A stretch of DNA of 64,000 nucleotides, from IMG/VR virus record IMGVR_UViG_3300028048_000001, positions 210,242 through 274,241 of that record. One strand, 5' to 3'. Under the pieces are notes generated by a model. The model was not told the DNA's origin, made no database searches, and saw nothing but the letters and a program-made list of their open reading frames with translations. The position numbers were made by a program, and so were the translations under genes. This DNA is from a virus. Its lineage: Duplodnaviria; Caudoviricetes. Positions 9,199 to 64,000 of this stretch are shown here, in pieces; within the stretch, counting starts at the first letter, position 1; every line of letters starts with the position of its first letter.

Positions 9199-12100
9199 TT
9201 AATAAGCAACTTCATTACCATCAATTATAACACCAGTAATTTTTTCTCCTTTGACCCAAGCAGTCTTATCAATAACAATATCACTAGGCACAGCAGTACT
9301 ATCTGTCTGAGATTCAAGAGTAGCTGCTTTAATTACAAACCCATTTGGATAATATCCGGCTTGAACAGTAACACTATCTCCTGCATTAATTGTAACATTA
9401 CTTCCAGTTCTTATAGGTATTGTACCAATTAATTTAACACCATTAGCCCAAGCTATTTTATTTTCTAATATATCATTTACAGTAGCATCTCCAGGAGTTT
9501 GAGTATCCGTTCCAGCTGCTATAACCGTTCCAGTACCATCATGATATCCTTTTGGAATAATATATGAATCTCCTCCATTAAGAGAAATATCAACAGTTCC
9601 AATATTAGGCATTGTACCAGTTATTTTAGTACCATTAACCCAAGCAGTTTTATTAATAAGAATATTATCAGATATAGCATCACCAGGAGTCTGAGATGCT
9701 AAAGTAGCAGCAATTATTTTACCAGTACCATCATGATATCCTTCTGATATAGTATGAATAGAACCACAATTAATAGTATCATTTTCTGATCCTATATCTG
9801 GCATTGTACCAGTTATTTTAGTACCATTAACCCAGGCGGTTTTATTAATAAGAATATTATTAATTACAGCATTGCCAGGAGTTTGAGATGCTAAAGTAGC
9901 AGTTGTTATAACTCCAGTACCATCATGATATCCTGCTGATATAGTATGAGTAGAGCCAGCAAGTAACTCTTCCGATTCAGAACCTATATTAGGTATAGTA
10001 CCAGTTAATTTAATACCATTAGCCCAAGCAGTTTTATTTATTAAAATATCAGAACTTTCTGCAGTAGCTGATGTTTGAGATGCTAAAGTAGCAGCAATTA
10101 TTTTACCAGTACCATCATGATATCCTTCTGATATAGTATGAATAGAACCACAATTAATAGTATCATTTTCTGATCCTATATTAGGTATAGTACCTGTAAT
10201 TTTTTCACCATTAACCCAAGCGGTTTTATTTATTAAAATATCAGAACTTTCTGCAGTAGCTGATGTTTGATCTGATAAATTTGTAGCTACTATAACTCCA
10301 TTACCATTATGATATCCTTCTGATATTGTAAAACTTTCTCCGGCGAGTAATTCTTCATATATTGTATCTATAATTGGTATCGTACCAGTTAATTTAATAC
10401 CATCAACCCAAGCAGTTTTATCTTTAATAATATCATCTGCTGTAGCAGTACCAGGAGTTTGAGTATCTGTTCCAGCCGCTATAACCGTTCCAGTACCATC
10501 ATGATATCCTTTTGGAATAGTATATGAATCTCCTCCATTAAGAGAAATATCAACAGTTCCAATATTAGGCATTGTACCAATAAGTTCAATACCATTAACC
10601 CAAGCAGTAGATCCTTCTATTATATTATCTTCAGTAGCAGTACCAATGGTTTGTTCATTTAAAGATTCTGAAGTTATAACTTCAGAACCATCATGATATC
10701 CTACCGGAATAGTATATGACTCTCCTGCAGATATTGTTTGACTTTCTGGTTCTACTATTGGAATCGTACCTACAACTTTTTCACCATTAACCCAAGCAGT
10801 TGATCCTTCAAGCATATCTGTTGCTGTAGCTGTACCAGATGTTTGATCTGATAAATCTGCAGAAGATATTGTAACTTGAGTATCATGATATCCAGTACGA
10901 AGAATAAATGATTCATTAGCATACAATACAGTATCTGAATCTGTAATTGTAGGCATCGTACCAGTCTGTTTACTTTTAGCATTTGTATTATAAAAAGTTT
11001 TTCCAGATACTACATGTTCTGGATATGCATTTCCTGTTAATTCTAATGTACCAGTAAGTTTTTGACCATCAACCCAAGCTGTTTTTGGAGATAATATATC
11101 TGAAACAGTAGCAGTACCTTCTGTTACAGATTCTATAGAAGGAGCTGTTATTTTACCAGAACCATTATGATATCCAGCTGGAATAGTATAAACTTCACCA
11201 GAGTCTAATCTCTTTGTAATTGCTCCTCTGTTTACCATTGTTCCAGTTTCTTTAAAATCTGGATAAGTTGTATAAAAAGTTTCCCCTTCTAATACATGTG
11301 CTGTTTTAGCATTACCAGTTAATTCTAATGTACCTTCTAATTTTGTAAAAGGATCATCAGAATAAAATTTATATCCTCTTAGCACTTTATCTGCAGTAGC
11401 ATCTCCAGTAAGTTCAAGCTCACCAGTAATTTGTTGATGTACATTATTATTGTAAAAAGTTTTTCCTTTTAATACTTGTACAGAAATTGCAGTACCTGTT
11501 AATTCTATATTACCAGTTAATTTAACTCCATCAACCCAGGCAGTTTTATCTTTAATAATATCATCTGCTGTAGCAGTACCAGGAGTTTGAGCATCCGTTC
11601 CAGTTGCTGTAATTATTCCAGTACCATCATGATATCCTTTTGGAATAGTATATGACTCTCCTCCATCAAGAGAAATATCTTGATGATTTATAACAGGTAT
11701 AGTACCTGCTATTTCTGTACCATTAACCCAGGCAGTTGATCCTTCAAGTAGATCATTTGCTGTAGCAGTACCAATAGTTTGTTCTTCTATAGATTTTGTC
11801 CAAATACGATCATTACCAGTATGATATCCACTTAAAACACTATAAGATTCTCCTGGCTGAAGTAATATTTCTACAGTTTGACGCAATGGCATTGTACCAG
11901 TTAATTTGACTCCATTAACCCAAGCAGTTTTTCCTTCAAAAATATCAATAGATTTTGCATCAGCCACAGTTTGAGAAGCTAAATCTTTACCTTTAACAAT
12001 ACCATTTCCAGAATGATAACCTTCTGGAATATTATATATTTCATCACAAGCTACTATTTCATTTAAATTTTCAATTTTTGGCATAGTACCTGTAATTTTT

Positions 12101-22880: not shown

Positions 22881-23849
22881 TTATTCATTAAATATATTTT
22901 TAAAATTAGCTTTAACTTTACCAGTATTCACATTACAATAAATCATTGTTGTGTCTAATTTAGAGTGACCTAAAAGTTCTTTAATTTGTTCAATTGGCAT
23001 ACCTTTATCCATAGCATGAGTTGCCATAGTTCGTCTAAATCTGTGAGGATGAACATTATCAACTCCGCTTTTTAAACCTAATTCTTTTAGGATAAGTTGT
23101 GCTGCTCTTATTGTTAATTTCTTTTTTGGTTTATCTAGATGACTAAATAGTGGTTCTTCTGGTTGAGCGTTTCTCTCATTTAAATAAATTTTTAACCATT
23201 TTATACATATATTAGATAAGTAAACTATTCGTTCTTTATGACCTTTACCAAAAACTACAACTTCTCCTTCTGAGAAGTCTATATCTTGAACATATAAACT
23301 TAAAGCTTCTGATATTCTACATCCAGTAGAATAAAGAAATTCTAGAAATGCTCTATCTCTGCTATTATTACATACTGATCTTAATAAAGTTATATCTTCT
23401 TCAGTAAAAGCTTTTTTAACTTTCTTTTCAACTATTATTTTCTCTATTCTATGACATGGATTTCTTTCTATGAATTCTTCATTTACTAGAAAATCATAGA
23501 AAGCTGATATAAATCGTATCATAGTTTGAGTTGTACTTGCTTGTAAATTATGTTCTTGTACATAATATGATAAATAATTTTTAATATCAGATGTAGTTAA
23601 TTCGGTTAAATTTCTGTTTGGATAAAATTTTCCTAATTTTCTTGCTTCTGATGTATAATGTAATATAGAAGATTGAGATAAACCAACCAGTTTTTTATTT
23701 TGTATGAATCTGTCTATCAATTCTTCATTTGGTAGAGAGTTTCTTGTAGTTTTGAGAATGATTTCTAATACATTTTTGAGTTTAGCCAGTTGATATTCGT
23801 TTAAATCTGGCTCCATTAATTTTAGAATCATTTCTACATTACTTACCAT
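22881..23849 (-). CDS. Tyrosine recombinase (XerC/D-like, N-terminal SAM-like domain)
   Basis: Intact catalytic set: STGCRISE, GKGHKER, HPHRFRRT, LLGHSKLDTTMIY. Confidence 0.95.
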   Translation of the reverse strand: MVSNVEMILKLMEPDLNEYQLAKLKNVLEIILKTTRNSLPNEELIDRFIQNKKLVGLSQSSILHYTSEARKLGKFYPNRNLTELTTSDIKNYLSYYVQEHNLQASTTQTMIRFISAFYDFLVNEEFIERNPCHRIEKIIVEKKVKKAFTEEDITLLRSVCNNSRDRAFLEFLYSTGCRISEALSLYVQDIDFSEGEVVVFGKGHKERIVYLSNICIKWLKIYLNERNAQPEEPLFSHLDKPKKKLTIRAAQLILKELGLKSGVDNVHPHRFRRTMATHAMDKGMPIEQIKELLGHSKLDTTMIYCNVNTGKVKANFKNIFNE

Positions 23850-46229: not shown

Positions 46230-47378
46230 TTATTCAGAAGCATAATTAGCAATAAATAGTACATTACCATAATCACCAGCTTCAATTCTTTCTGGATTCC
46301 ATTTTATAAAAACATATCCAGATTTAATTGCTGCAGGTGGTGTATATGCTCCATCTTCTATAGTATAAGATGTCTTAGCTGATGCAGGCATAGTACCACC
46401 ATCAGTATTGTATGTTATAGAATAATTTACTGGTATATAAGTAAAAGTATATTCTAAATCTTTACTTGTAATAACAACACTATCTATATCTTTATTATAT
46501 GCAGTAATATTTTTAGCATACAAAGTCTGTCCAGGTATACAATCAATGTTTGTTGTTTCTATTTCTATTCCAGTAGATGATATATAATGTACTTTTACAT
46601 TCCATATATACCAACTAGGAATTCTACCAGCTTCCAATGCTGTTGTATTAGTAAAAGCATCAGTAAAATCAGAAAACTGTCCATTTGCCCAATTTTCAAC
46701 AGCAGACACATCACCTAATAATCTACAATCTTTAAATAAATTAGTAATTTTCATTCCTGAATTAGTTTCTAATTTATTTAAATCACTAATATTTCTAAGT
46801 AAACTAAACCCTTCAAATGCAGAACTCATATCATTATTACAATGAATTCTTACTGTACTGTATAAAAATAATGTTCCATTAGAACACCATGCTTGAATAG
46901 GTGTACTTGTATTTGAAAGATTAATAGTGTTACTAGTATCTGGTTTTGTAGAAGATATTTGAATAGACATTATTGTCGTTTTATCAAATTTATTATTAAC
47001 CAAAGAATTAAAATTACTTCCATTTACTAATATAGCATTATCTGACCAATTTGCTGTAATAGTAATATCTCCTGTATGTCCTTTTGTAATAGAATTAGGA
47101 TTCCATCCTATAAAAGTATATCCTTCTTTAGAAGGAACAGGAGGTATATATTCTGTTTCTACAGTATATTTATATAATGGATTTAAAGATTCATCGAAAT
47201 ATCCACCATTTAAATTATAATCAATATTATATTCTATTGGAGAATATTTAAAAATAAAATGCTGTCCATCTTCTGTAAGAATTTGAGGATCTGGAGTAAC
47301 ATATCCTTTAATATCTTTAGGATAGACATAGGTATTTCTTTTTGCTACTGAACAATATTTACCAATTACAGTACCCAT
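46230..47378 (-). CDS. InlB B-repeat (Flg_new) and BspA/DUF285-like surface protein
   Basis: YNLNGG...P.KEGYTFIGW repeat (two copies); DMSSAFEG..L / ITNLFKDC LRR-like units. Confidence 0.7.
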   Translation of the reverse strand: MGTVIGKYCSVAKRNTYVYPKDIKGYVTPDPQILTEDGQHFIFKYSPIEYNIDYNLNGGYFDESLNPLYKYTVETEYIPPVPSKEGYTFIGWNPNSITKGHTGDITITANWSDNAILVNGSNFNSLVNNKFDKTTIMSIQISSTKPDTSNTINLSNTSTPIQAWCSNGTLFLYSTVRIHCNNDMSSAFEGFSLLRNISDLNKLETNSGMKITNLFKDCRLLGDVSAVENWANGQFSDFTDAFTNTTALEAGRIPSWYIWNVKVHYISSTGIEIETTNIDCIPGQTLYAKNITAYNKDIDSVVITSKDLEYTFTYIPVNYSITYNTDGGTMPASAKTSYTIEDGAYTPPAAIKSGYVFIKWNPERIEAGDYGNVLFIANYASE

Positions 47379-53823: not shown

Positions 53824-55056
53824 TCATACTCCCAATATAGAATCTATAATATTATTATAAGAAGAATTATTATTTTCTGTAATTTCAACAGGTTTAGCCA
53901 ATAAAGTTTCTAATTCTTCTTTAGCTACAGTCATGAAAGCTTGAGCAAAATCATTATCTGATAATAATTTATCTTTAAATCCTTTCTGAGTAAATCTCAT
54001 ATCAGGATATCCTCTAAGATTACAATAAGCTCCTTTCATTTCTATAGCACCGTTTGATTTAAGATACATAAATAAAGATAATATTTCATCAAACCCACTA
54101 TTATAACTAAATACCATAGGAACAGATCTTCCAGATGCATTTGTTCTTGATTTAATATAAGTAAAATCTACAATTTTGCCATATATACCTAAATCTTTCT
54201 CAGGTTTAAGTACAGTACCATCATCTACTCTTATCATATTATTAGCTAAGTATAATGCTGCTTTTCCACCAGGTAATGATTCATTCTGTTTAAGAAATCC
54301 TACCTGTGATTTTGTATGTACAAAAGCATTAATTTCAATTTTATCTGTAATATGATTAATTACAAATAAAATAATATTAGCTGCTTTAAGCTTAGGGACA
54401 ATACGTTTAAAAACAGCAGTATTGGTTTTAGCCATTGCTGTTGCAGTCATTTGTCCACCAAGTTCTCCACCAACATCATCTACAACTTTTTCTGGTGTTA
54501 ACATAGCTAATGAATCAAGAATATATACAGTAGGAATAAGTTTATATATCTCATTTCCTCTAGAATCTAAAAGTCCAGTATTATATTCATAATCATCTCT
54601 ATGAGATAATTTTTCATTATAAATATAATCTATTCTTTCAAAGAAATTTTCTGCAGATACACTTTGATTTCTATATATTAATTTAGAATCGATATCTTCT
54701 GGACCAAATTTAGTAAGAATTTCTCTTCTGGCAGCATTAGATCCACCTTCAATATCATCATAAAATATAGCAGCTTGAGGAAATCTTCTAACAATATTTG
54801 CTGCTATTTGAAGAGCTATTGTTGTTTTACCACTCGACGGCCTTCCTACAAAAGTTGTACTAGATCCATCTGTAATTCCAACGGCATTGTACCAAAATTC
54901 TTCTTCATTTGGTTTTTTAACATGAACTTTATATCCATTTAAATAATCAAGAGGAAGAAATCCTGTAGAATACATAACATCAGCAACAGCTTCATTCATT
55001 CTTGGGTCTTTATTTTTTGCCATTTGTGCTCTAAATCTATCAGCTAATAAACTCAT
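53824..55056 (-). CDS. recA: RecA/UvsX-like recombinase
   Basis: STGFLPLD, GRPSSGKTT, DIEG, ILDSLA, INHI, PGGKA; start MSLL after an AAGGAGG SD. Confidence 0.88.
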   Translation of the reverse strand: MSLLADRFRAQMAKNKDPRMNEAVADVMYSTGFLPLDYLNGYKVHVKKPNEEEFWYNAVGITDGSSTTFVGRPSSGKTTIALQIAANIVRRFPQAAIFYDDIEGGSNAARREILTKFGPEDIDSKLIYRNQSVSAENFFERIDYIYNEKLSHRDDYEYNTGLLDSRGNEIYKLIPTVYILDSLAMLTPEKVVDDVGGELGGQMTATAMAKTNTAVFKRIVPKLKAANIILFVINHITDKIEINAFVHTKSQVGFLKQNESLPGGKAALYLANNMIRVDDGTVLKPEKDLGIYGKIVDFTYIKSRTNASGRSVPMVFSYNSGFDEILSLFMYLKSNGAIEMKGAYCNLRGYPDMRFTQKGFKDKLLSDNDFAQAFMTVAKEELETLLAKPVEITENNNSSYNNIIDSILGV

Positions 55057-55195
55057 ATAAACCTCCTTAATTATTATATATTTTATCAAAATTATAATAT
55101 ATTAATATTTTTAAATTTGGTATTTATATGTTTTTCAAAAAATAAAAATAGAAAAACAGGATAGAGAGACAATCTCTCTATCCTTTAATATTTTA

Positions 55196-58366: not shown

Positions 58367-59401
58367 TTATACACTTAATGTTAAAGTACCATTAGAATAT
58401 GATGCTTTAATACCACCTAACGCATTAGAAGAAGCAGCAGGTAAAGTATAGGTATATTTATTAGCAGATGCTTGAATACTATTTAATTTAATTTTATCTG
58501 CAGCCGACATTAATCCATTAGTAGAAGTAGTAACAGCAGCATAAGTAGTATTGTTATCGACATTATACTTAGTACCAGCAGCCCATCCAGCACCAGTAAG
58601 AACGTATGCAGTAGTTGCATAGTTAGTATTACCAGATTTAGCAGCAGGAGCCAGTCCAGCAGCAGCAGATGTAAAGTTAGCATAAGTAGTATTAGTATCA
58701 GTATTATACTTATCTCCAGCTTTCCATCCAGCACCAGTTAATACATAAGCAGAACTTAAATAACTAGTACTACCATTCTTTGCAGCAGGAGCTAATCCAG
58801 CAGCAGATGATGTAAATGTACTATATGTACCACCAGCAGCTCCCCAAGATCCGTCACCTAATAAGCATTTAGTACTATCTCCATTTAAACTAGGCATAAA
58901 TCCAGCAGATGTTCTTGTTGCTACATTATGAGTATGATTTATATCTGCTTTATCATTAACAGCTGTAACTAAATTAGTTAATGTATCATTCATCTGCTTA
59001 ACTAACAAAGAACTAGGAACATGAGTACTATCTGATATTTGGGTATTAGATATAAGATCTGTACCATCTGAAGCTTTTAATGTGGATGTATCATGTGTAT
59101 GATCTTTATCAGATTTATTATCTTTTAAATCACTAATAGCTTCTCCTATTGAACTATATCCAACAGAACCTATATCTAAATCACCTATTATTTTATATAA
59201 ATATCTTATATTCTTAAACATAGAAGATATTTTAGTAAATATAGAACCATTGGTCTCAGAAGAAGCTAATTTAGTAACATTTGTCCAATTACTAGCAGAA
59301 GAATCATCCGTATCATTAGATATTCCAGTAAATATAGCATCTTCAGATTGGAGAATATCATATGTAGTTGTTCCAATTTGTATTTTATCAACTTGTGCCA
59401 T
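58367..59401 (-). CDS. Tail fibre protein
   Basis: HTH metal-binding fibre motifs, AAGL.PA, NTTY repeats, GLMSAADKIKL, LGGIK. Confidence 0.8.
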   Translation of the reverse strand: MAQVDKIQIGTTTYDILQSEDAIFTGISNDTDDSSASNWTNVTKLASSETNGSIFTKISSMFKNIRYLYKIIGDLDIGSVGYSSIGEAISDLKDNKSDKDHTHDTSTLKASDGTDLISNTQISDSTHVPSSLLVKQMNDTLTNLVTAVNDKADINHTHNVATRTSAGFMPSLNGDSTKCLLGDGSWGAAGGTYSTFTSSAAGLAPAAKNGSTSYLSSAYVLTGAGWKAGDKYNTDTNTTYANFTSAAAGLAPAAKSGNTNYATTAYVLTGAGWAAGTKYNVDNNTTYAAVTTSTNGLMSAADKIKLNSIQASANKYTYTLPAASSNALGGIKASYSNGTLTLSV

Positions 59402-59424
59402 ATACTATATATCCTCCTTTCTAT

Positions 59425-60432
59425 TTAAACTCTAACTGATAAAGGATTAAGAGTTAAAGTACCATTAGAATATACTGCTTTAACTCCAGAAGTATTAAGA
59501 GCATAAGTAGTATTAGTATCGACATTATACTTAGTACCAGCAGCCCATCCAGCACCAGTAAGAACGTATGCAGTAGTTGCACAGTTAGTATTACCAGATT
59601 TAGCAACAGGAACAAGACCATTAGCTGCAGATGTAAAGTTAGCATAAGTAGTATTAGCAGGTACTGACCATGTTTTATCTCCACGAAGGTAAGCACCTTG
59701 TTTACCAGCAGCAGGAGCAGGAACTAATCCATTAGTGCCAGCAGCTGAAGCTGTAGCAGCTCCCATTACACCATAAGTAGTATTAGTATCAGTATTATAC
59801 TTAGTACCAGCAGCCCATCCAGCACCAGTAAGAACGTATGCAGTAGTAGCATAGTTAGTAGTACCATTCTTTGCAGCTGGAGTTAATCCAGCAGCAGCAG
59901 ATGTAAAGTTAGCATAAGTAGTATTGTTATCAGGAGGTGTAGTCCAGCTACCATTACCATTCAAATACTGTGTAGCTGTACCTGATAAAGTTGGGGCTAA
60001 TCCTGGAGCAGCTGTAGAAACAGTAGCATAAGTAGATCCGGCTGTCCCCCATGTTCCATCACCTAATAAACATTTATCAGAAGATCCATCTAATGCAGGA
60101 AGAAATCCTGCAGCAGAAGATGTTGCTATAGGGTGTGTATGATCACTATTAGATTTTCCACTAGAAAGAGCAGAAATTGCTGCAGTAATAGTATTACCTA
60201 CTCCAGATATATCTGTAGTACCTAATTTACTATATAAATATCTTATATTCTTAAACATATTAGATATTTTAGTAAATATAGAACCATTAGTTTCTCCTGT
60301 AGCTAATACAGCTACATCTGTCCATGAACTAGGAGAAGCAGAATCTTCACTAGTACCATCAAATGTTCCTGTAGAAGAAGGAGTTATATCATATGTAGTT
60401 TCTCCAGCTTGTATTTTATTTATATTAGACAT
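59425..60432 (-). CDS. Tail fibre protein (paralog of 58367-59401)
   Basis: Shared ETNGSIFTKIS.MFKNIRYLY and AYVLTGAGWAAGTKYN blocks; GLVPAPAAGKQ..LRGD.TW. Confidence 0.8.
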   Translation of the reverse strand: MSNINKIQAGETTYDITPSSTGTFDGTSEDSASPSSWTDVAVLATGETNGSIFTKISNMFKNIRYLYSKLGTTDISGVGNTITAAISALSSGKSNSDHTHPIATSSAAGFLPALDGSSDKCLLGDGTWGTAGSTYATVSTAAPGLAPTLSGTATQYLNGNGSWTTPPDNNTTYANFTSAAAGLTPAAKNGTTNYATTAYVLTGAGWAAGTKYNTDTNTTYGVMGAATASAAGTNGLVPAPAAGKQGAYLRGDKTWSVPANTTYANFTSAANGLVPVAKSGNTNCATTAYVLTGAGWAAGTKYNVDTNTTYALNTSGVKAVYSNGTLTLNPLSVRV

Positions 60433-60482: not shown

Positions 60483-61184
60483 TTAGTAACTTGTAATTTT
60501 TGTTATTGTGCTTGGTTTTCCTTGACCATAATTATCATATTCTTCACCACCAGATTCACTAGTGTATGTTGTAGCTACTGCAAGATAGCAATTAGCATTT
60601 CTATTTGCTGTAGGTATTGTAATACTTCTAGTAGAATTACCTCTTAATGCAGCCCAGGCTATTACACACCATACTGCTCCATTACCTGTAAGAGAACTAA
60701 CTCCAGCTACATATAAAGGAACAGATCCATATGTTTCATATGTTTGTGTAGTTATAGTAATTTCAATAGTAGTTTTATTTGTAAGATTTACTTTATTATT
60801 AGTCATAAATTTTACATATCCTACAGAACATATAGGACTACCATCATCACTATCCCATGTAACGGTTCTCCAGCAGTCTGCAGATAATCCATTAGTAAGA
60901 CTAAAACTAGATTTCCTACCAGGATTAGTAGTACTCCAAGTTGGAGAACCTTTTATAAATTTATCAGCAGTATAGCATGCCCATCCATAATTTGAAGAAG
61001 AACCACCCCATCCTCCCATACCAGACGAATGTGTTCTTCCTGTAAAAGTAGAACTTGCATTTCCACCATTAAATATAACAAGTAAATCTGGAAATACTTG
61101 TGTACTTCCCCAAAGTACTTTAGTAATATTAGTACTACCCCATTTAACTGCTGTTACATTACTACTACCCCATTTAATAGCCAT
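60483..61184 (-). CDS. Putative fibre-tip adhesin/receptor-binding protein, cassette A1
   Basis: Start MAIKWG; triple (K/L)WG N-terminal repeat followed by a variable G/S/T/aromatic-rich domain. Confidence 0.65.
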   Translation of the reverse strand: MAIKWGSSNVTAVKWGSTNITKVLWGSTQVFPDLLVIFNGGNASSTFTGRTHSSGMGGWGGSSSNYGWACYTADKFIKGSPTWSTTNPGRKSSFSLTNGLSADCWRTVTWDSDDGSPICSVGYVKFMTNNKVNLTNKTTIEITITTQTYETYGSVPLYVAGVSSLTGNGAVWCVIAWAALRGNSTRSITIPTANRNANCYLAVATTYTSESGGEEYDNYGQGKPSTITKITSY

Positions 61185-61224
61185 ATAAAAAATATCTTCT
61201 TTACATAGCACATACTAGCGTCAT
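61182..61224 (-). repeat. Conserved cassette leader with core AGCGTCAT (copy 1, hybrid site)
   Basis: CATATAAAAAATATCTTCTTTACATAGCACATACTAGCGTCAT, repeated at 62661-62703 and 63411-63452. Confidence 0.9.
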
Positions 61225-61516
61225 TTAACGAAGTCAATGCATTATTCATCTATTTAACCAATAAAAAACTAGAAATATGGTCATTATAGCTTACTTGACT
61301 CGTTATAATGAGGCTATTACCATTGCCATCTTTCAAATCGGAATCTGTATGAATATGCTTAGTAGTAGCTTTTCCAGAATCTAATTTAGCTACTGTAGTT
61401 CAGGAAATAGCACTACCATCTGCTACATAACTAGATATAAAATTATTAGTGATATTAGCAAATGCAGTAATATCATAAGTGATCTAACCGACTTGAATTT
61501 TGTCAATTTGAGCTAT
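61217..61516 (-). pseudogene. Degenerate N-terminal fragment of a third tail fibre paralog
   Basis: (ATA)AQIDKIQVG*ITYDI...AIS*TTVAKL...SSFLLVK*MNNALTSLNDA aligns with 58367-59401; start codon lost, three stops, internal deletion; AAGGAGG SD retained. Confidence 0.85.
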
Positions 61517-61887
61517 ATAAAGAATCTTTCCTCCTTATATTTTTCTTAGATTATTGCTTAATTAAAAATATTATTCTCAGATTATTAAAATAGTATATTT
61601 GAGGATAACCAGACAACCTTTTATACTATAACTTATTTTCAATATACACTATTTAACAATTTAATATGCTAGGCTGAATTACTTTTAATGTTTAATATAT
61701 TCAGCCTAACACATTAAATTTAAATTAATAAGGAGACCAACAAAAATGGTTAAATAGGATATATTAACAAATAAGCAATAATCTGTAAATATATTGCGTT
61801 TAGTTTGGATAACCAATTTTAGAGTTTAAATATAGAATATATTAAACATAAAAAAGTAATATCCTTTATTTATAGCACAATATACTT

Positions 61888-61899
61888 TACTAAAAAGTT
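61888..61899 (-). promoter_or_regulatory. Late-type promoter candidate AACT-N6-TA
   Basis: AACTTTTTAGTA pointing toward cassette A1 and the fibre genes. Confidence 0.4.
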
Positions 61900-62001
61900 A
61901 TATTTTTATATATCTAAAATTTAAAATTAAATTTATCAATAACTTTTATTATTTATTTTTATGAATAAAAAATAAATAATAAATAAAAAATGATAAAAAT
62001 A

Positions 62002-62041
62002 ACTATCCTCAGATATATAAAAATAAGCATCTGAGGATAGT
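62002..62041 (-). terminator. Terminator-like hairpin downstream of the cassette array
   Basis: ACTATCCTCAGAT...ATCTGAGGATAGT (13-bp stem) followed by T-rich sequence on the minus strand. Confidence 0.7.
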
Positions 62042-62056
62042 ATTGAATATTTCTCA

Positions 62057-62084
62057 GACTTTTTCGTAAAAGCGTCATATAAAA
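62057..62084. repeat. Terminal hybrid site with core AGCGTCAT (62071-62078)
   Basis: GACTTTTTCGTAAA-AGCGTCAT-ATAAAA: right flank as in array junctions, left flank unique. Confidence 0.8.
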
Positions 62085-62663
62085 TTAAGAAAAATTTATA
62101 AAATTTATTTTTAAATGTGATGTAAACCAGAACCACGATCCCGCTCCTGAAGCTTTTGTTGTATTATAAGCAAAAAAAAACTTAAATTTTCCATCAGTAT
62201 TAGCATTTAAAACTTTTGATGTTAAAGTAAAAGATCCATTTTTTGGAATATCAAAATTAGTATAACCAGCTGTACCCCAATACCCACCAGTATTATAGGA
62301 AAAGTGTATTTCTATTTTTGGGTCTATTTTATTAATATCTCCTTTATCCCAATCTGTCATATTATGATATCCAGAAATTGTTATATATGAATATTTAGTA
62401 AAATCTCTTTCAGCATTATTAACTGGTACACCACTACTATATACAACATATCCAAGGTTATCTGGTGGAACACGTTCTGCATCTGAATATTCTGTGCTAA
62501 ATGGAGCACTATTAAAACAATTATATCCATTCAAAGGTGCAGTAGCAGTACTTCCATTATACCCATCAGGAAATACTATAGTTGAACCCCATTTAACACA
62601 TGTACAAGTATTAGTACCCCATTTAACTACTGTTACATTACTACTACCCCATTTAATTGCCAT
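62085..62663 (-). CDS. Putative adhesin cassette B1
   Basis: MAIKWG start, triple KWG repeat, type-B C-terminal domain. Confidence 0.7.
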   Translation of the reverse strand: MAIKWGSSNVTVVKWGTNTCTCVKWGSTIVFPDGYNGSTATAPLNGYNCFNSAPFSTEYSDAERVPPDNLGYVVYSSGVPVNNAERDFTKYSYITISGYHNMTDWDKGDINKIDPKIEIHFSYNTGGYWGTAGYTNFDIPKNGSFTLTSKVLNANTDGKFKFFFAYNTTKASGAGSWFWFTSHLKINFINFS

Positions 62664-62708
62664 ATAAAAAATATCTTCTTTACATAGCACATACTAGCGT
62701 CATATAAA

Positions 62709-63413
62709 TTAGTAATATGTAATTTTAGTTATTGTATTAGTACCATAAACATAATCAGCATTATCTGTTGAATTTCCTAATAATATTATAGCAAAATAAC
62801 AATTGGCATTTCTATTTGCTGTAGGTATTGTAAAAGATGCTGTAGATGTAGTATTTTTTGTTATACTAGATCTGACACACCAAGTAAATTTATTTGAACC
62901 TGTACTTGCCGTAGTTGTTATTCCTCCAACATATATTGGAGTATATCCATCATGTGCATTAGTTGATGATGTTAGTGTAATTTGAATAGTAGATCTATTT
63001 GTAAAGTCTATTTTATTATTTTTATACACAAATTTTGTTCTGCCACAATTATAACTCATATAGTCTCCACTAGAACTACCTTGATATAGATATCCTTCAC
63101 ATTTAGAATATATTCCGTTTGTAAGAGAAAAAGTTGCAAGATTTCCATGTTTTGATGTATATGGATTTGGTTCGTCCCAATATTTATAATTTGATACAAA
63201 GTAAGATGCTTCATAACAAAACCATTCATTAAGAGTTGGTCCAGAATCAAATATTTCTCCATTCATTCCAGTAAAATTAGATGAAGCATTACCTCCGTTA
63301 AATAAAGTTACTAAGTCTGGAAATACTTGTGTACTTCCCCAAAGTACTTTAGTAATATTAGTACTACCCCATTTAACCGCTGTTACATTACTATTACCCC
63401 ATTTAATAGCCAT
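62709..63413 (-). CDS. Putative adhesin cassette A2
   Basis: First 34 aa nearly identical to A1; the rest is diverged except blocks such as TIPTANRNANCY and TITKIT. Confidence 0.7.
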   Translation of the reverse strand: MAIKWGNSNVTAVKWGSTNITKVLWGSTQVFPDLVTLFNGGNASSNFTGMNGEIFDSGPTLNEWFCYEASYFVSNYKYWDEPNPYTSKHGNLATFSLTNGIYSKCEGYLYQGSSSGDYMSYNCGRTKFVYKNNKIDFTNRSTIQITLTSSTNAHDGYTPIYVGGITTTASTGSNKFTWCVRSSITKNTTSTASFTIPTANRNANCYFAIILLGNSTDNADYVYGTNTITKITYY

Positions 63414-63458
63414 ATAAAAATATCTTCTTTACATAGCACTTACTAGCGTCATATAAAA

Positions 63459-64000
63459 TTAAGAAAAATTCATAAAATTTATTTTTAAATGTGATGTAAA
63501 TCTGAACCATCCTGCATTGGCTGAAGCTTTTGATGTATTATAAGCAAAATAAAACTGAAATTTTCCATTAGTATCAGCATTTAAAACTTTTGATGTTAAA
63601 GTAAAAGATCCATTTTTTGGAATATCAAAATTAGTATAACCAGCTGTACCATGATAACCATTAACACTATATGTAAAGTCTATTTCTATTTTTGGGTCTA
63701 TTTTATTAATATCTCCATGATCCCAATCTGTCATATTATGATATCCAGAAATTGTTATATATGAATATTTAGTAAAATCTCTTTCAGCATTATTAACTAG
63801 TATACTATTACTATATACAACAAATCCAAGGTGATCTGGTTTAACATGTTCTGCATCTGAATATTCTGTGCTAAATGGAGCACTATTAAAACAATTATAT
63901 CCATTCAAAGGTGCAGTAGCAGTACTTCCATTATACCCATCAGGAAATACTATAGTTGAACCCCATTTAACACATGTACAAGTATTAGTACCCCATTTAA
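63459..64000 (-). CDS. Putative adhesin cassette B2 (5' end beyond the window)
   Basis: Near-copy of B1 with clustered substitutions; the frame stays open to the window edge through KWGTNTCTCVKWG. Confidence 0.75.
   Translation of the reverse strand, partial: KWGTNTCTCVKWGSTIVFPDGYNGSTATAPLNGYNCFNSAPFSTEYSDAEHVKPDHLGFVVYSNSILVNNAERDFTKYSYITISGYHNMTDWDHGDINKIDPKIEIDFTYSVNGYHGTAGYTNFDIPKNGSFTLTSKVLNADTNGKFQFYFAYNTSKASANAGWFRFTSHLKINFMNFS

Follow-up and report, generated by a model that had tools for sequence, protein, structure and literature searches.

In the mycoplasmas, the vpma genes of M. agalactiae (with Xer1), the vsp genes of M. bovis and the vsa genes of M. pulmonis (with HvsR) are surface or adhesin families in which an Xer-like tyrosine recombinase, acting at a short site in a conserved 5' region, brings a single regulatory unit before silent genes (PMC2268961). 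Here we describe a locus of similar working in a 64,000-nucleotide stretch (hereafter the window: the whole stretch analysed) that forms the last 64 kb of the 274,241-bp IMG/VR virus record IMGVR_UViG_3300028048_000001, from a 274-kb rumen jumbo phage that we class as virulent. The locus is an array of cassette genes upstream of two fibre genes. Its units are separated by an asymmetric 8-bp core, ATGACGCT on the gene strand, and one of them is a non-coding segment, module M. The comparisons below support the view that M is a separate unit able to relocate, with reciprocal hybrid sites at its two ends, and suggest that the slot it occupies may decide which fibre-tip genes are expressed. Our search of the literature found no description of such a system; by analogy, it appears closest in its working to the Mycoplasma single-expression-site switches, to integrons and to Xer-dependent dif modules, and would be a member of none of them.

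As regards the unique promoter unit whose position selects the expressed gene in the Mycoplasma switches, M carries a terminator and a leader with a Shine-Dalgarno (SD) sequence, and there is one M per array; a promoter search found none. The phage enzyme is likewise Xer-like, here as a candidate. The Mycoplasma systems act by DNA inversion between inverted sites on a bacterial chromosome, and their recombinase gene is adjacent to the locus (PMC2268961), whereas this locus has direct sites, moves a non-coding terminator-leader cassette, belongs to a virulent jumbo phage and lies 38 kb from the recombinase gene. Because all sites are direct, the reaction must be excision and integration, or deletion. 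Integrons share with the locus a one-directional array of mostly promoterless cassettes, a short conserved core at which loss and gain occur exactly, a tyrosine recombinase and, on our reading of expression, a dependence on position relative to a promoter. The integron promoter is fixed and its cassettes move, whereas here the regulatory unit itself is the cassette. The phage enzyme scores 106.8 bits against the integron-integrase model TIGR02249 (cut-off 265) and 72.6 against PRK15417 (cut-off 435), its best model being XerA. Instead of the palindromic attC sites of ~60-140 bp and an attI beside a fixed Pc, the junctions are ~50 nt long (stop-TTTTAT-core-leader-ATG) and hold no palindrome.

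The dif modules of Acinetobacter and the integrative mobile elements exploiting Xer (IMEX) are also non-autonomous modules with short Xer-type sites and shuffled positions (PMC13141974, PMC6449649, PMC7399989). Their 28-bp sites, present at both ends of each module, have 11-bp arms around a 6-bp spacer, alternate in orientation and are served by host XerC/XerD; here the spacer is 8 bp, arms occur only on the module-borne halves, the cores are direct and the recombinase is phage-encoded. The enzyme does belong to the Xer family, and no 28-bp two-arm site is present. Phage recombinases change the receptor-binding part in Mu G, P1 C, p15B Min and the Rin shufflon of Bifidobacterium prophages, where serine invertases or an Rci-like recombinase invert coding segments and swap fibre C-termini (PMC6109161). 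Here, in contrast, there is neither inversion nor coding fusion, and the inverted sites of a shufflon are lacking: cores, M and cassettes keep one orientation in every assembly. With lambda attP/attB/attL/attR the locus shares reciprocal hybrids around an insert, and an armed partner (the M joint) that meets a target with little beyond the identical overlap; hybrid sites stand where a slot is occupied and a single site where it is empty, with 8-9 bp of identity. It differs in that the insert is non-coding, 0.6-0.85 kb long and part of the phage genome itself, with several targets in one locus, rather than a phage entering a host chromosome.

On the plus strand the core reads AGCGTCAT and occurs four times in the window (61217, 62071, 62696 and 63445), against 0.22 copies expected by chance; none of 100 shuffles reached four. 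The ends of the record share a 127-bp repeat, and the record is therefore a circular assembly; a fifth copy lies at base 200, just beyond the circular join. These five array cores make one per junction, all in the same orientation, and a single further copy is found elsewhere in the genome, for which ~3 are expected by chance. In transcription order the locus runs from a tRNA cluster through a hairpin with a T-run (H) to the array (H, core-B2, core-A2, core-B1, core-M, core-A1) and then the two fibre genes, with a core preceding each cassette. A normal junction reads stop-TTTTAT-ATGACGCT-AGTA(T/A)GTGCTATGTAAAG...ATG on the gene strand.

A first-pass annotation, made from the letters of the stretch, had proposed that the copies at 61217 and 62071 are reciprocal attL/attR-like hybrids, and reading the flanks of both copies gives exactly this arrangement. 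At 62071 the upstream array flank is retained and is followed by TTTACGAAAAAGTC. The new flanks also show the inverted symmetry described there (TTTACGAA against TTAACGAA, 7/8, then GTC). Inverted arms around an 8-bp spacer are the layout of a tyrosine-recombinase site, and the reconstructed joint of an excised M, TTCGT(T/G)AA-ATGACGCT-T(T/G)TACGAA, consists of two inverted arms about such a spacer. The arms read T-N-N-A-C-G-A-A on both sides, both in this genome, where they match at 7/8, and in a distant lineage, G001, where they match at 6/8; in both lineages the pentamer ACGAA is inverted on the two sides, 3 nt from the core.

If M is a relocatable unit, it should occur with the same ends in other slots. 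Contigs of close strains, reached in ENA through A1 homologues, hold full-length M, 94-96% identical and with identical ends, in differing slots. The order is H/M/B b' A2 A1 A1 E/fibres in L058, L059 and L060 (three samples), H/M/A1 E/fibres in L062-L065 (four assemblies) and H/B/M/A1 E' in L066, compared with H/B A2 B/M/A1 in this genome (G000; also L056 and Logan contigs of runs X1 and X5). The main strain of run X2 has A2/M/A1, with B1 absent exactly core to core; its A2/M joint lies on a 654-nt contig and has 13 nt shared at the joint. (Logan contigs were examined for runs X1, X2, X4 and X5; most other listed joints were disregarded, having AT-rich sides of 21-23 nt.) Across strains the cassette types stay collinear (B..A2..A1..E) while the slot of M differs. 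M diverges (~95.5% identity) as much as the flanking fibre genes do (95-96%) and was therefore inherited vertically and relocated within lineages.

Over all the assemblies compared, M occurs once per array and is never inverted, as expected for an asymmetric overlap region. Five kinds of upstream neighbour were found (H, a B-type cassette, A2, c173 and a second hairpin, H2), with M 92-96% identical and its ends and orientation unchanged; downstream stand a B-type cassette, an A1-type cassette, a 225-aa cassette or c183. The idea in the first-pass annotation that the segment might also sit in front of other cassettes is thus borne out, and matching empty sites accompany it.

These empty sites come from two more distant groups. 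G001 is a 287,868-bp relative found by a fibre-protein search, with fibres 70% identical. Its array holds at least ten cassettes with the KWG repeat and has ATGACGCT at every junction, though the flanks differ. The homologous module, of 621 bp, has c173 and c183 as its neighbours (eight cassettes stand before it and two after), and its ends read ATGACGCT-TGTACGAAAAAGTCTGAGAAATATTCA ... GACTTCGTGAA-ATGACGCT. Its left 27 nt match ours at 26/27 and both arms of an internal inverted repeat are identical, the rest of the module being 60-75% identical. A fibre pseudogene that fills the right part of our M is essentially erased in G001, and the 11-nt right arm, an island of conservation (GACTTCGTGAA), is retained. 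Contigs L069-L072 and L074 are 100% identical to G001. Three of them (L071, L072 and L074) read c173/core/c183 without M, L070 has the M/c183 form, and L069 reads H/core/M/core/c183, the eight upstream cassettes being absent. L069 and L074 come from the same sample and have their first 141 nt in common; these two forms are the two products that one core-by-core deletion yields from the G001 arrangement. The M-less order c173/core/c183 is also seen where the G001 contig begins; the contig ends misfit a simple bubble at one word size, and the proof of an empty site rests on L071, L072 and L074. As a separate observation, the third cassette of the G001 array (L031 6127-6700) has TGA for TGG in its first KWG motif and is a pseudogene, also in the identical L074.

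In a third group of contigs M is 93.6% identical and stands behind a different flank. This flank is hairpin H2, and it comes after homologues of genes located at 57-64 kb in our genome. L075 has the H2 flank occupied (H2/M/225-aa cassette), L078 and L079 have it empty, and a complete array of this group, L076, has no M at all. Two occupied and empty pairs are therefore available, c173/M/c183 with c173/c183 and H2/M/cassette with H2/cassette. When L075 (1-7118) and L078 (1-6694) are set against our genome (57,500-63,800), the locus is seen to lie behind homologues of genes ~60 kb from the array. L075 and the canonical H-flanked array of L076 contain an identical 225-aa cassette (P0015), suggesting that there are two loci or that cores far apart take part in exchange.

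The breakpoints are short. New left junctions share only TTTTAT and the core (at most 14 bp) with their precursor junctions, so the crossovers are confined to the core, and the M-less c173/c183 junction requires a crossover within 8-9 bp. Such core-limited events are repeated across three lineages and also inside populations of 100% identity, and the 8-bp core stays invariant where lineages have diverged in their junction flanks.

The candidate enzyme is an Xer-like tyrosine recombinase, and each of the two complete genomes, G000 and G001, encodes exactly one site-specific recombinase; neither holds a resolvase, rve, DDE_Tnp_1 or IS110-type enzyme. It scores 218.1 bits against XerA (cut-off 220), 185 against XerC and 182 against XerD, the closest solved structures being XerC-like 4a8e, XerD 1a0p and XerA 5hxy. 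The catalytic residues R, K, HxxR, H and Y are present. At 89% identity between G000 and G001 it is better conserved than the fibres. On this evidence it is most likely the enzyme that moves M.

Together these data lead us to a model that, taken as a whole, we consider probable: a core-delimited array from which M is cut out and reinserted by conservative site-specific recombination, with expression probably dependent on the slot. The 8-bp sequence would be the crossover site that delimits the units of the array, M being the one non-coding regulatory cassette among them. M would be excised and reinserted across the core, always in the same orientation, so that an occupied slot carries attL-like and attR-like hybrids and an empty slot one normal junction. 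The excised form would be a circle with the inverted-arm joint, and blocks of cassettes beside M would be deleted by the same reaction, carried out by the phage's single Xer-like recombinase. Cassettes between the entry terminator H and the terminator of M would be cut off from the fibre operon, those downstream of M would be co-transcribed with the fibre genes, and the slot of M would set which tip or adhesin genes accompany them.

The internal anatomy of M (Table 1) bears on this last step. Its parts, in 5' to 3' order, are an intrinsic terminator (T1), a strongly structured domain of ~240 nt, a ribosome-binding site and a dead fibre 5' end; a search of the genome for further copies found none. 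The terminator facing the upstream cassettes that was noted in the first-pass annotation is real, with a perfect 13-bp stem (62002-62014 paired with 62029-62041; -24.1 kcal/mol, z = -5.9) followed by a U-run, and it differs from its G001 counterpart by two compensatory changes in the stem. The pseudogene is an evident relative of the N-terminal portion of fibre 2 (SSLLVKQMNDTLTNL against SSFLLVK*MNNALTSL), and the right arm does lie, as had been remarked, inside this decayed reading frame (...LTSLNDA). We infer that M drives the downstream cassettes because it derives from the 5' regulatory region of a fibre gene, carries an SD sequence and, with H, brackets the upstream cassettes with terminators.

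Table 1. Features of the array, module M and associated genes (positions in the window).
Feature	Position	Strand	Description
Upstream core copy, attL-like hybrid	62071..62078	-	lies between array flank TTTTAT and a module arm
Downstream core copy, attR-like hybrid	61217..61224	-	lies between module arm GACTTCGTTAA and a normal cassette leader
Normal array core, A2/B1 junction	62696..62703	-	
Normal array core, B2/A2 junction	63445..63452	-	
Module M	61225..62070	-	846 bp, non-coding; single copy in genome; 92-96% identical in other slots of relatives
Left end block TTTACGAAAAAGTCTGAGAAATATTCA	62044..62070	-	contains arm TTTACGAA; 26/27 identical in G001
Intrinsic terminator T1	61985..62041	-	13-bp stem, 14-nt loop, U-run; faces upstream cassettes
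Structured ~240-nt domain	61548..61784	-	closed by 13/14-bp inverted repeat AGATTATTGCTTAT / ATAAGCAATAATCT
SD and decayed fibre 5' end	61236..61536	-	AAGGAGG at 61530-61536, then ~105 codons; three stops, start codon lost
Right arm GACTTCGTTAA	61225..61235	-	last codons (LTSLN) of decayed fibre frame
Xer-like tyrosine recombinase	22881..23849	-	sole site-specific recombinase detected; candidate enzyme
Two fibre genes	58367..60432	-	335 and 344 aa; downstream of A1
Cassette A1	60483..61184	-	233 aa, KWG-repeat N-terminus; sole cassette between module and fibre genes
Cassette B1	62085..62663	-	192 aa; upstream of module
Cassette A2	62709..63413	-	234 aa
Cassette B2	63459..64000	-	192 aa; 5' part and first core at bases 1-207 of circular record

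Several points weigh against the model of a mobile M. Neither the circle joint predicted by the first-pass annotation nor a tandem M was found in IMG/VR or in the Logan contigs of four runs, a weak negative because only contigs were searched and these drop rare forms. Joints marking a loss of M were likewise missing from those listed for the Logan contigs. Inverted arms around the core are missing from normal array junctions, which leaves the M-linked sites as the only ones that resemble full recombinase sites; by analogy, the armless junctions may behave as weak attB-type targets do. Because the right arm descends from coding sequence, its symmetry with the left arm could have begun by chance. 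The recombinase gene lies ~38 kb from the array and its link to the core is that of a candidate. All of the comparative data are metagenome assemblies, and some of the samples may overlap. Arrays without M exist (L076, L071, L072 and L074), and M may be unneeded for fibre expression; it is therefore dispensable in cis, or those arrays are excision products, and correspondingly the fibres have another promoter or the M-less forms arose by excision. Finally, the candidate late promoter of the first-pass annotation went unconfirmed, a scan of M for sigma-70-like sites giving fewer than its shuffles. Word enrichment in 148 upstream regions yielded a recurrent motif, atattaTAATAATGa, together with AAAACTTTATA, and both are absent from M in conserved form. 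atattaTAATAATGa stands 30-90 nt before the start codons in ~12 upstream regions (for example at 46,972, 86,019, 112,143 and 244,540 of our genome) and is probably one promoter class of the phage; AAAACTTTATA lies ~35 nt before five large genes.

The alternative that survives best, which we nevertheless think unlikely, is that M is a static, conserved intergenic regulatory region around which cassettes are gained and lost by general or microhomology recombination of the UvsX type, with selection keeping junctions intact and no dedicated site-specific system at work. Cassettes share ~150 nt downstream of each core (core, leader and KWG N-terminus), so that homologous exchange could alter the right neighbour of M, and changes in cassette copy number could arise in the same way; a UvsX-like recombinase is encoded nearby (53824-55089), and the missing circle joint is in keeping with this view. 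On the left side of M, in contrast, H/M, B/M, A2/M, c173/M, H2/M and the M-less c173/c183 would each need a crossover inside at most 14 bp. The recurrence of these events across three lineages and within 100%-identical populations, the constant order of cassette types while only the slot of M changes, and the invariance of the core where the junction flanks have diverged all argue for site-specific exchange instead.

Far less probable is a non-autonomous transposon of the miniature inverted-repeat transposable element (MITE) kind, with short terminal inverted repeats and a target specificity for ATGACGCT that gives an 8-bp target-site duplication. The 7/8 terminal repeats, the identical 8-bp direct repeats around M and the single copy at empty sites have this appearance, yet neither complete genome encodes an rve, DDE_Tnp_1 or IS110 transposase. 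Further, M is single in the genome, with one copy per array in fixed orientation, the flanking repeat is always the same 8 bp and the content of M is phage regulatory DNA with a fibre relic; precise empty sites and adjoining core-to-core deletions of cassettes better fit conservative recombination. The caveat of the first-pass annotation, that the segment could be an immobile one-off insertion scar, or else an ancestral operon boundary, drew on the right arm lying in a decayed frame homologous to fibre 2 and on M being single copy here; it is refuted by the same ends in at least six junction contexts, by their empty-site counterparts and by the retention of the arm in a lineage from which the pseudogene has gone, leaving this reading with hardly any credence. 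Contigs do often break inside the array, at or near a core or leader (L004, which starts at a core at its position 1; L031/L032, the G001 ends; and the ends of L056 and L074), which fits population heterogeneity at the junctions and might also point to assembly artefacts at repeats, an explanation of the alternative positions that is scarcely tenable given exact repeats of at most 14 bp at left junctions and under 60 nt at leaders against assembly word sizes of 127-141, H/M followed by six cassettes in three samples and by two in four assemblies, and recovery of the G000 order in IMG/VR, ENA and two Logan runs.

The structured domain of M has features of its own. It folds far better than shuffled sequences (z = -7.1), and within it lie a 22-bp hairpin (61658-61720) and a degenerate T1 copy; the nested-hairpin counterpart in G001 (L031 9344-9594, against 61548-61784 of the window) has z = -6.0. 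The arms of the closing repeat, AGATTATTGCTTAT and ATAAGCAATAATCT, lie 190-205 bp apart and are 100% conserved in the two lineages, with diverged sequence between them. Covariation is uninformative for this closing stem because the stem never varies. The repeat could be a structured leader RNA, an inversion switch held in one orientation or a protein-binding DNA element; as an invertible switch it was rejected, having the same orientation in all assemblies. An Rfam scan of the hairpins of M returned only sub-threshold matches to microRNA models. Elsewhere in M (61840-61893, minus strand) there is a degenerate cassette leader (TGTGCTATAAATAAAGGATATTACTTTTTTATG compared with TGTGCTATGTAAAGAAGATATTTTTTATATG), and AAAATATAACTTTTTAGTAAAGTATAT, immediately upstream of this leader, is conserved better than any other internal block when M is compared with G001. 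Antisense to the array (61729-61755, plus strand), an SD-like GGAGACC is followed 6-7 nt on by ATGGTTAA. The pair is kept in both lineages (counterpart at L031 ~9344-9400, reverse strand) and opens only mini-reading frames, MVK* and MVNKVYK*.

The genome has a G+C content of ~25%, and nearly all runs that contain the stretch are bovine gut metagenomes. Genes around the array are on the minus strand, and the tRNA cluster was confirmed in the relative L058 (Pro, Met, Gln, Lys and Leu). Cassette proteins are 192-234 aa long and have a common N-terminus of three xKWGxxxxTxV repeats with variable bodies. They matched no Pfam or PHROG family, the B1 protein had no relatives in IMG/VR, and an AlphaFold model of A1 (13 sequences) reached a predicted local distance difference test score of 45, too poor for a structure search. 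Among GenBank phages there was no close relative, only a weak N-terminal match to Roseburia phage Jekyll. In the array (60483-64000) and in all related arrays the cassette genes are without an SD sequence, while neighbouring genes have a strong AAGGAGG; the cassettes instead share an invariant ~35-nt leader, AGTATGTGCTATGTAAAG..., that is absent from the rest of the genome. Exact-pattern scans of IMG/VR with the junction leader, the module end and the circle joint returned nothing, or G001 only. A metagenome scan with the right-hybrid pattern returned the source contig of G001 and 21 unrelated chance matches. Among the chance matches was a repeated element with the hairpin GACTTCGTGAAATGACGCTGAAGTC in a conserved ~150-nt context, from organisms of ~40-46% G+C (JGI metagenome contigs L035-L038, L040, L041, L044, L049 and L052-L054).

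These data allow us to put forward, tentatively and with less confidence than the model above, an 'inside-out integron' with an array of promoterless receptor-binding or tip cassettes, in which the regulatory cassette (terminator, structured leader and promoter) would be the mobile part and the Xer-like recombinase would hop it among the identical 8-bp cores at high frequency, as bet-hedging over host range. If so, one stock would continuously yield sub-populations with different adhesin subsets while the coding sequence is unchanged. Should the mechanism hold, it would add a third route to variation in receptor recognition, beside inversion switches and diversity-generating retroelements, in which the phage shifts a regulatory cassette through an archive of tip genes. 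The Xer-like recombinase, whose strong conservation in a lytic jumbo phage is puzzling, would also gain a role, and the locus would provide a compact, orientation-specific recombination system with an 8-bp core, for which occupied and empty sites occur naturally. In viromics of the rumen and gut, the order of a fibre array would be a population variable rather than a fixed feature of a genome, which would explain the breaks in assemblies.

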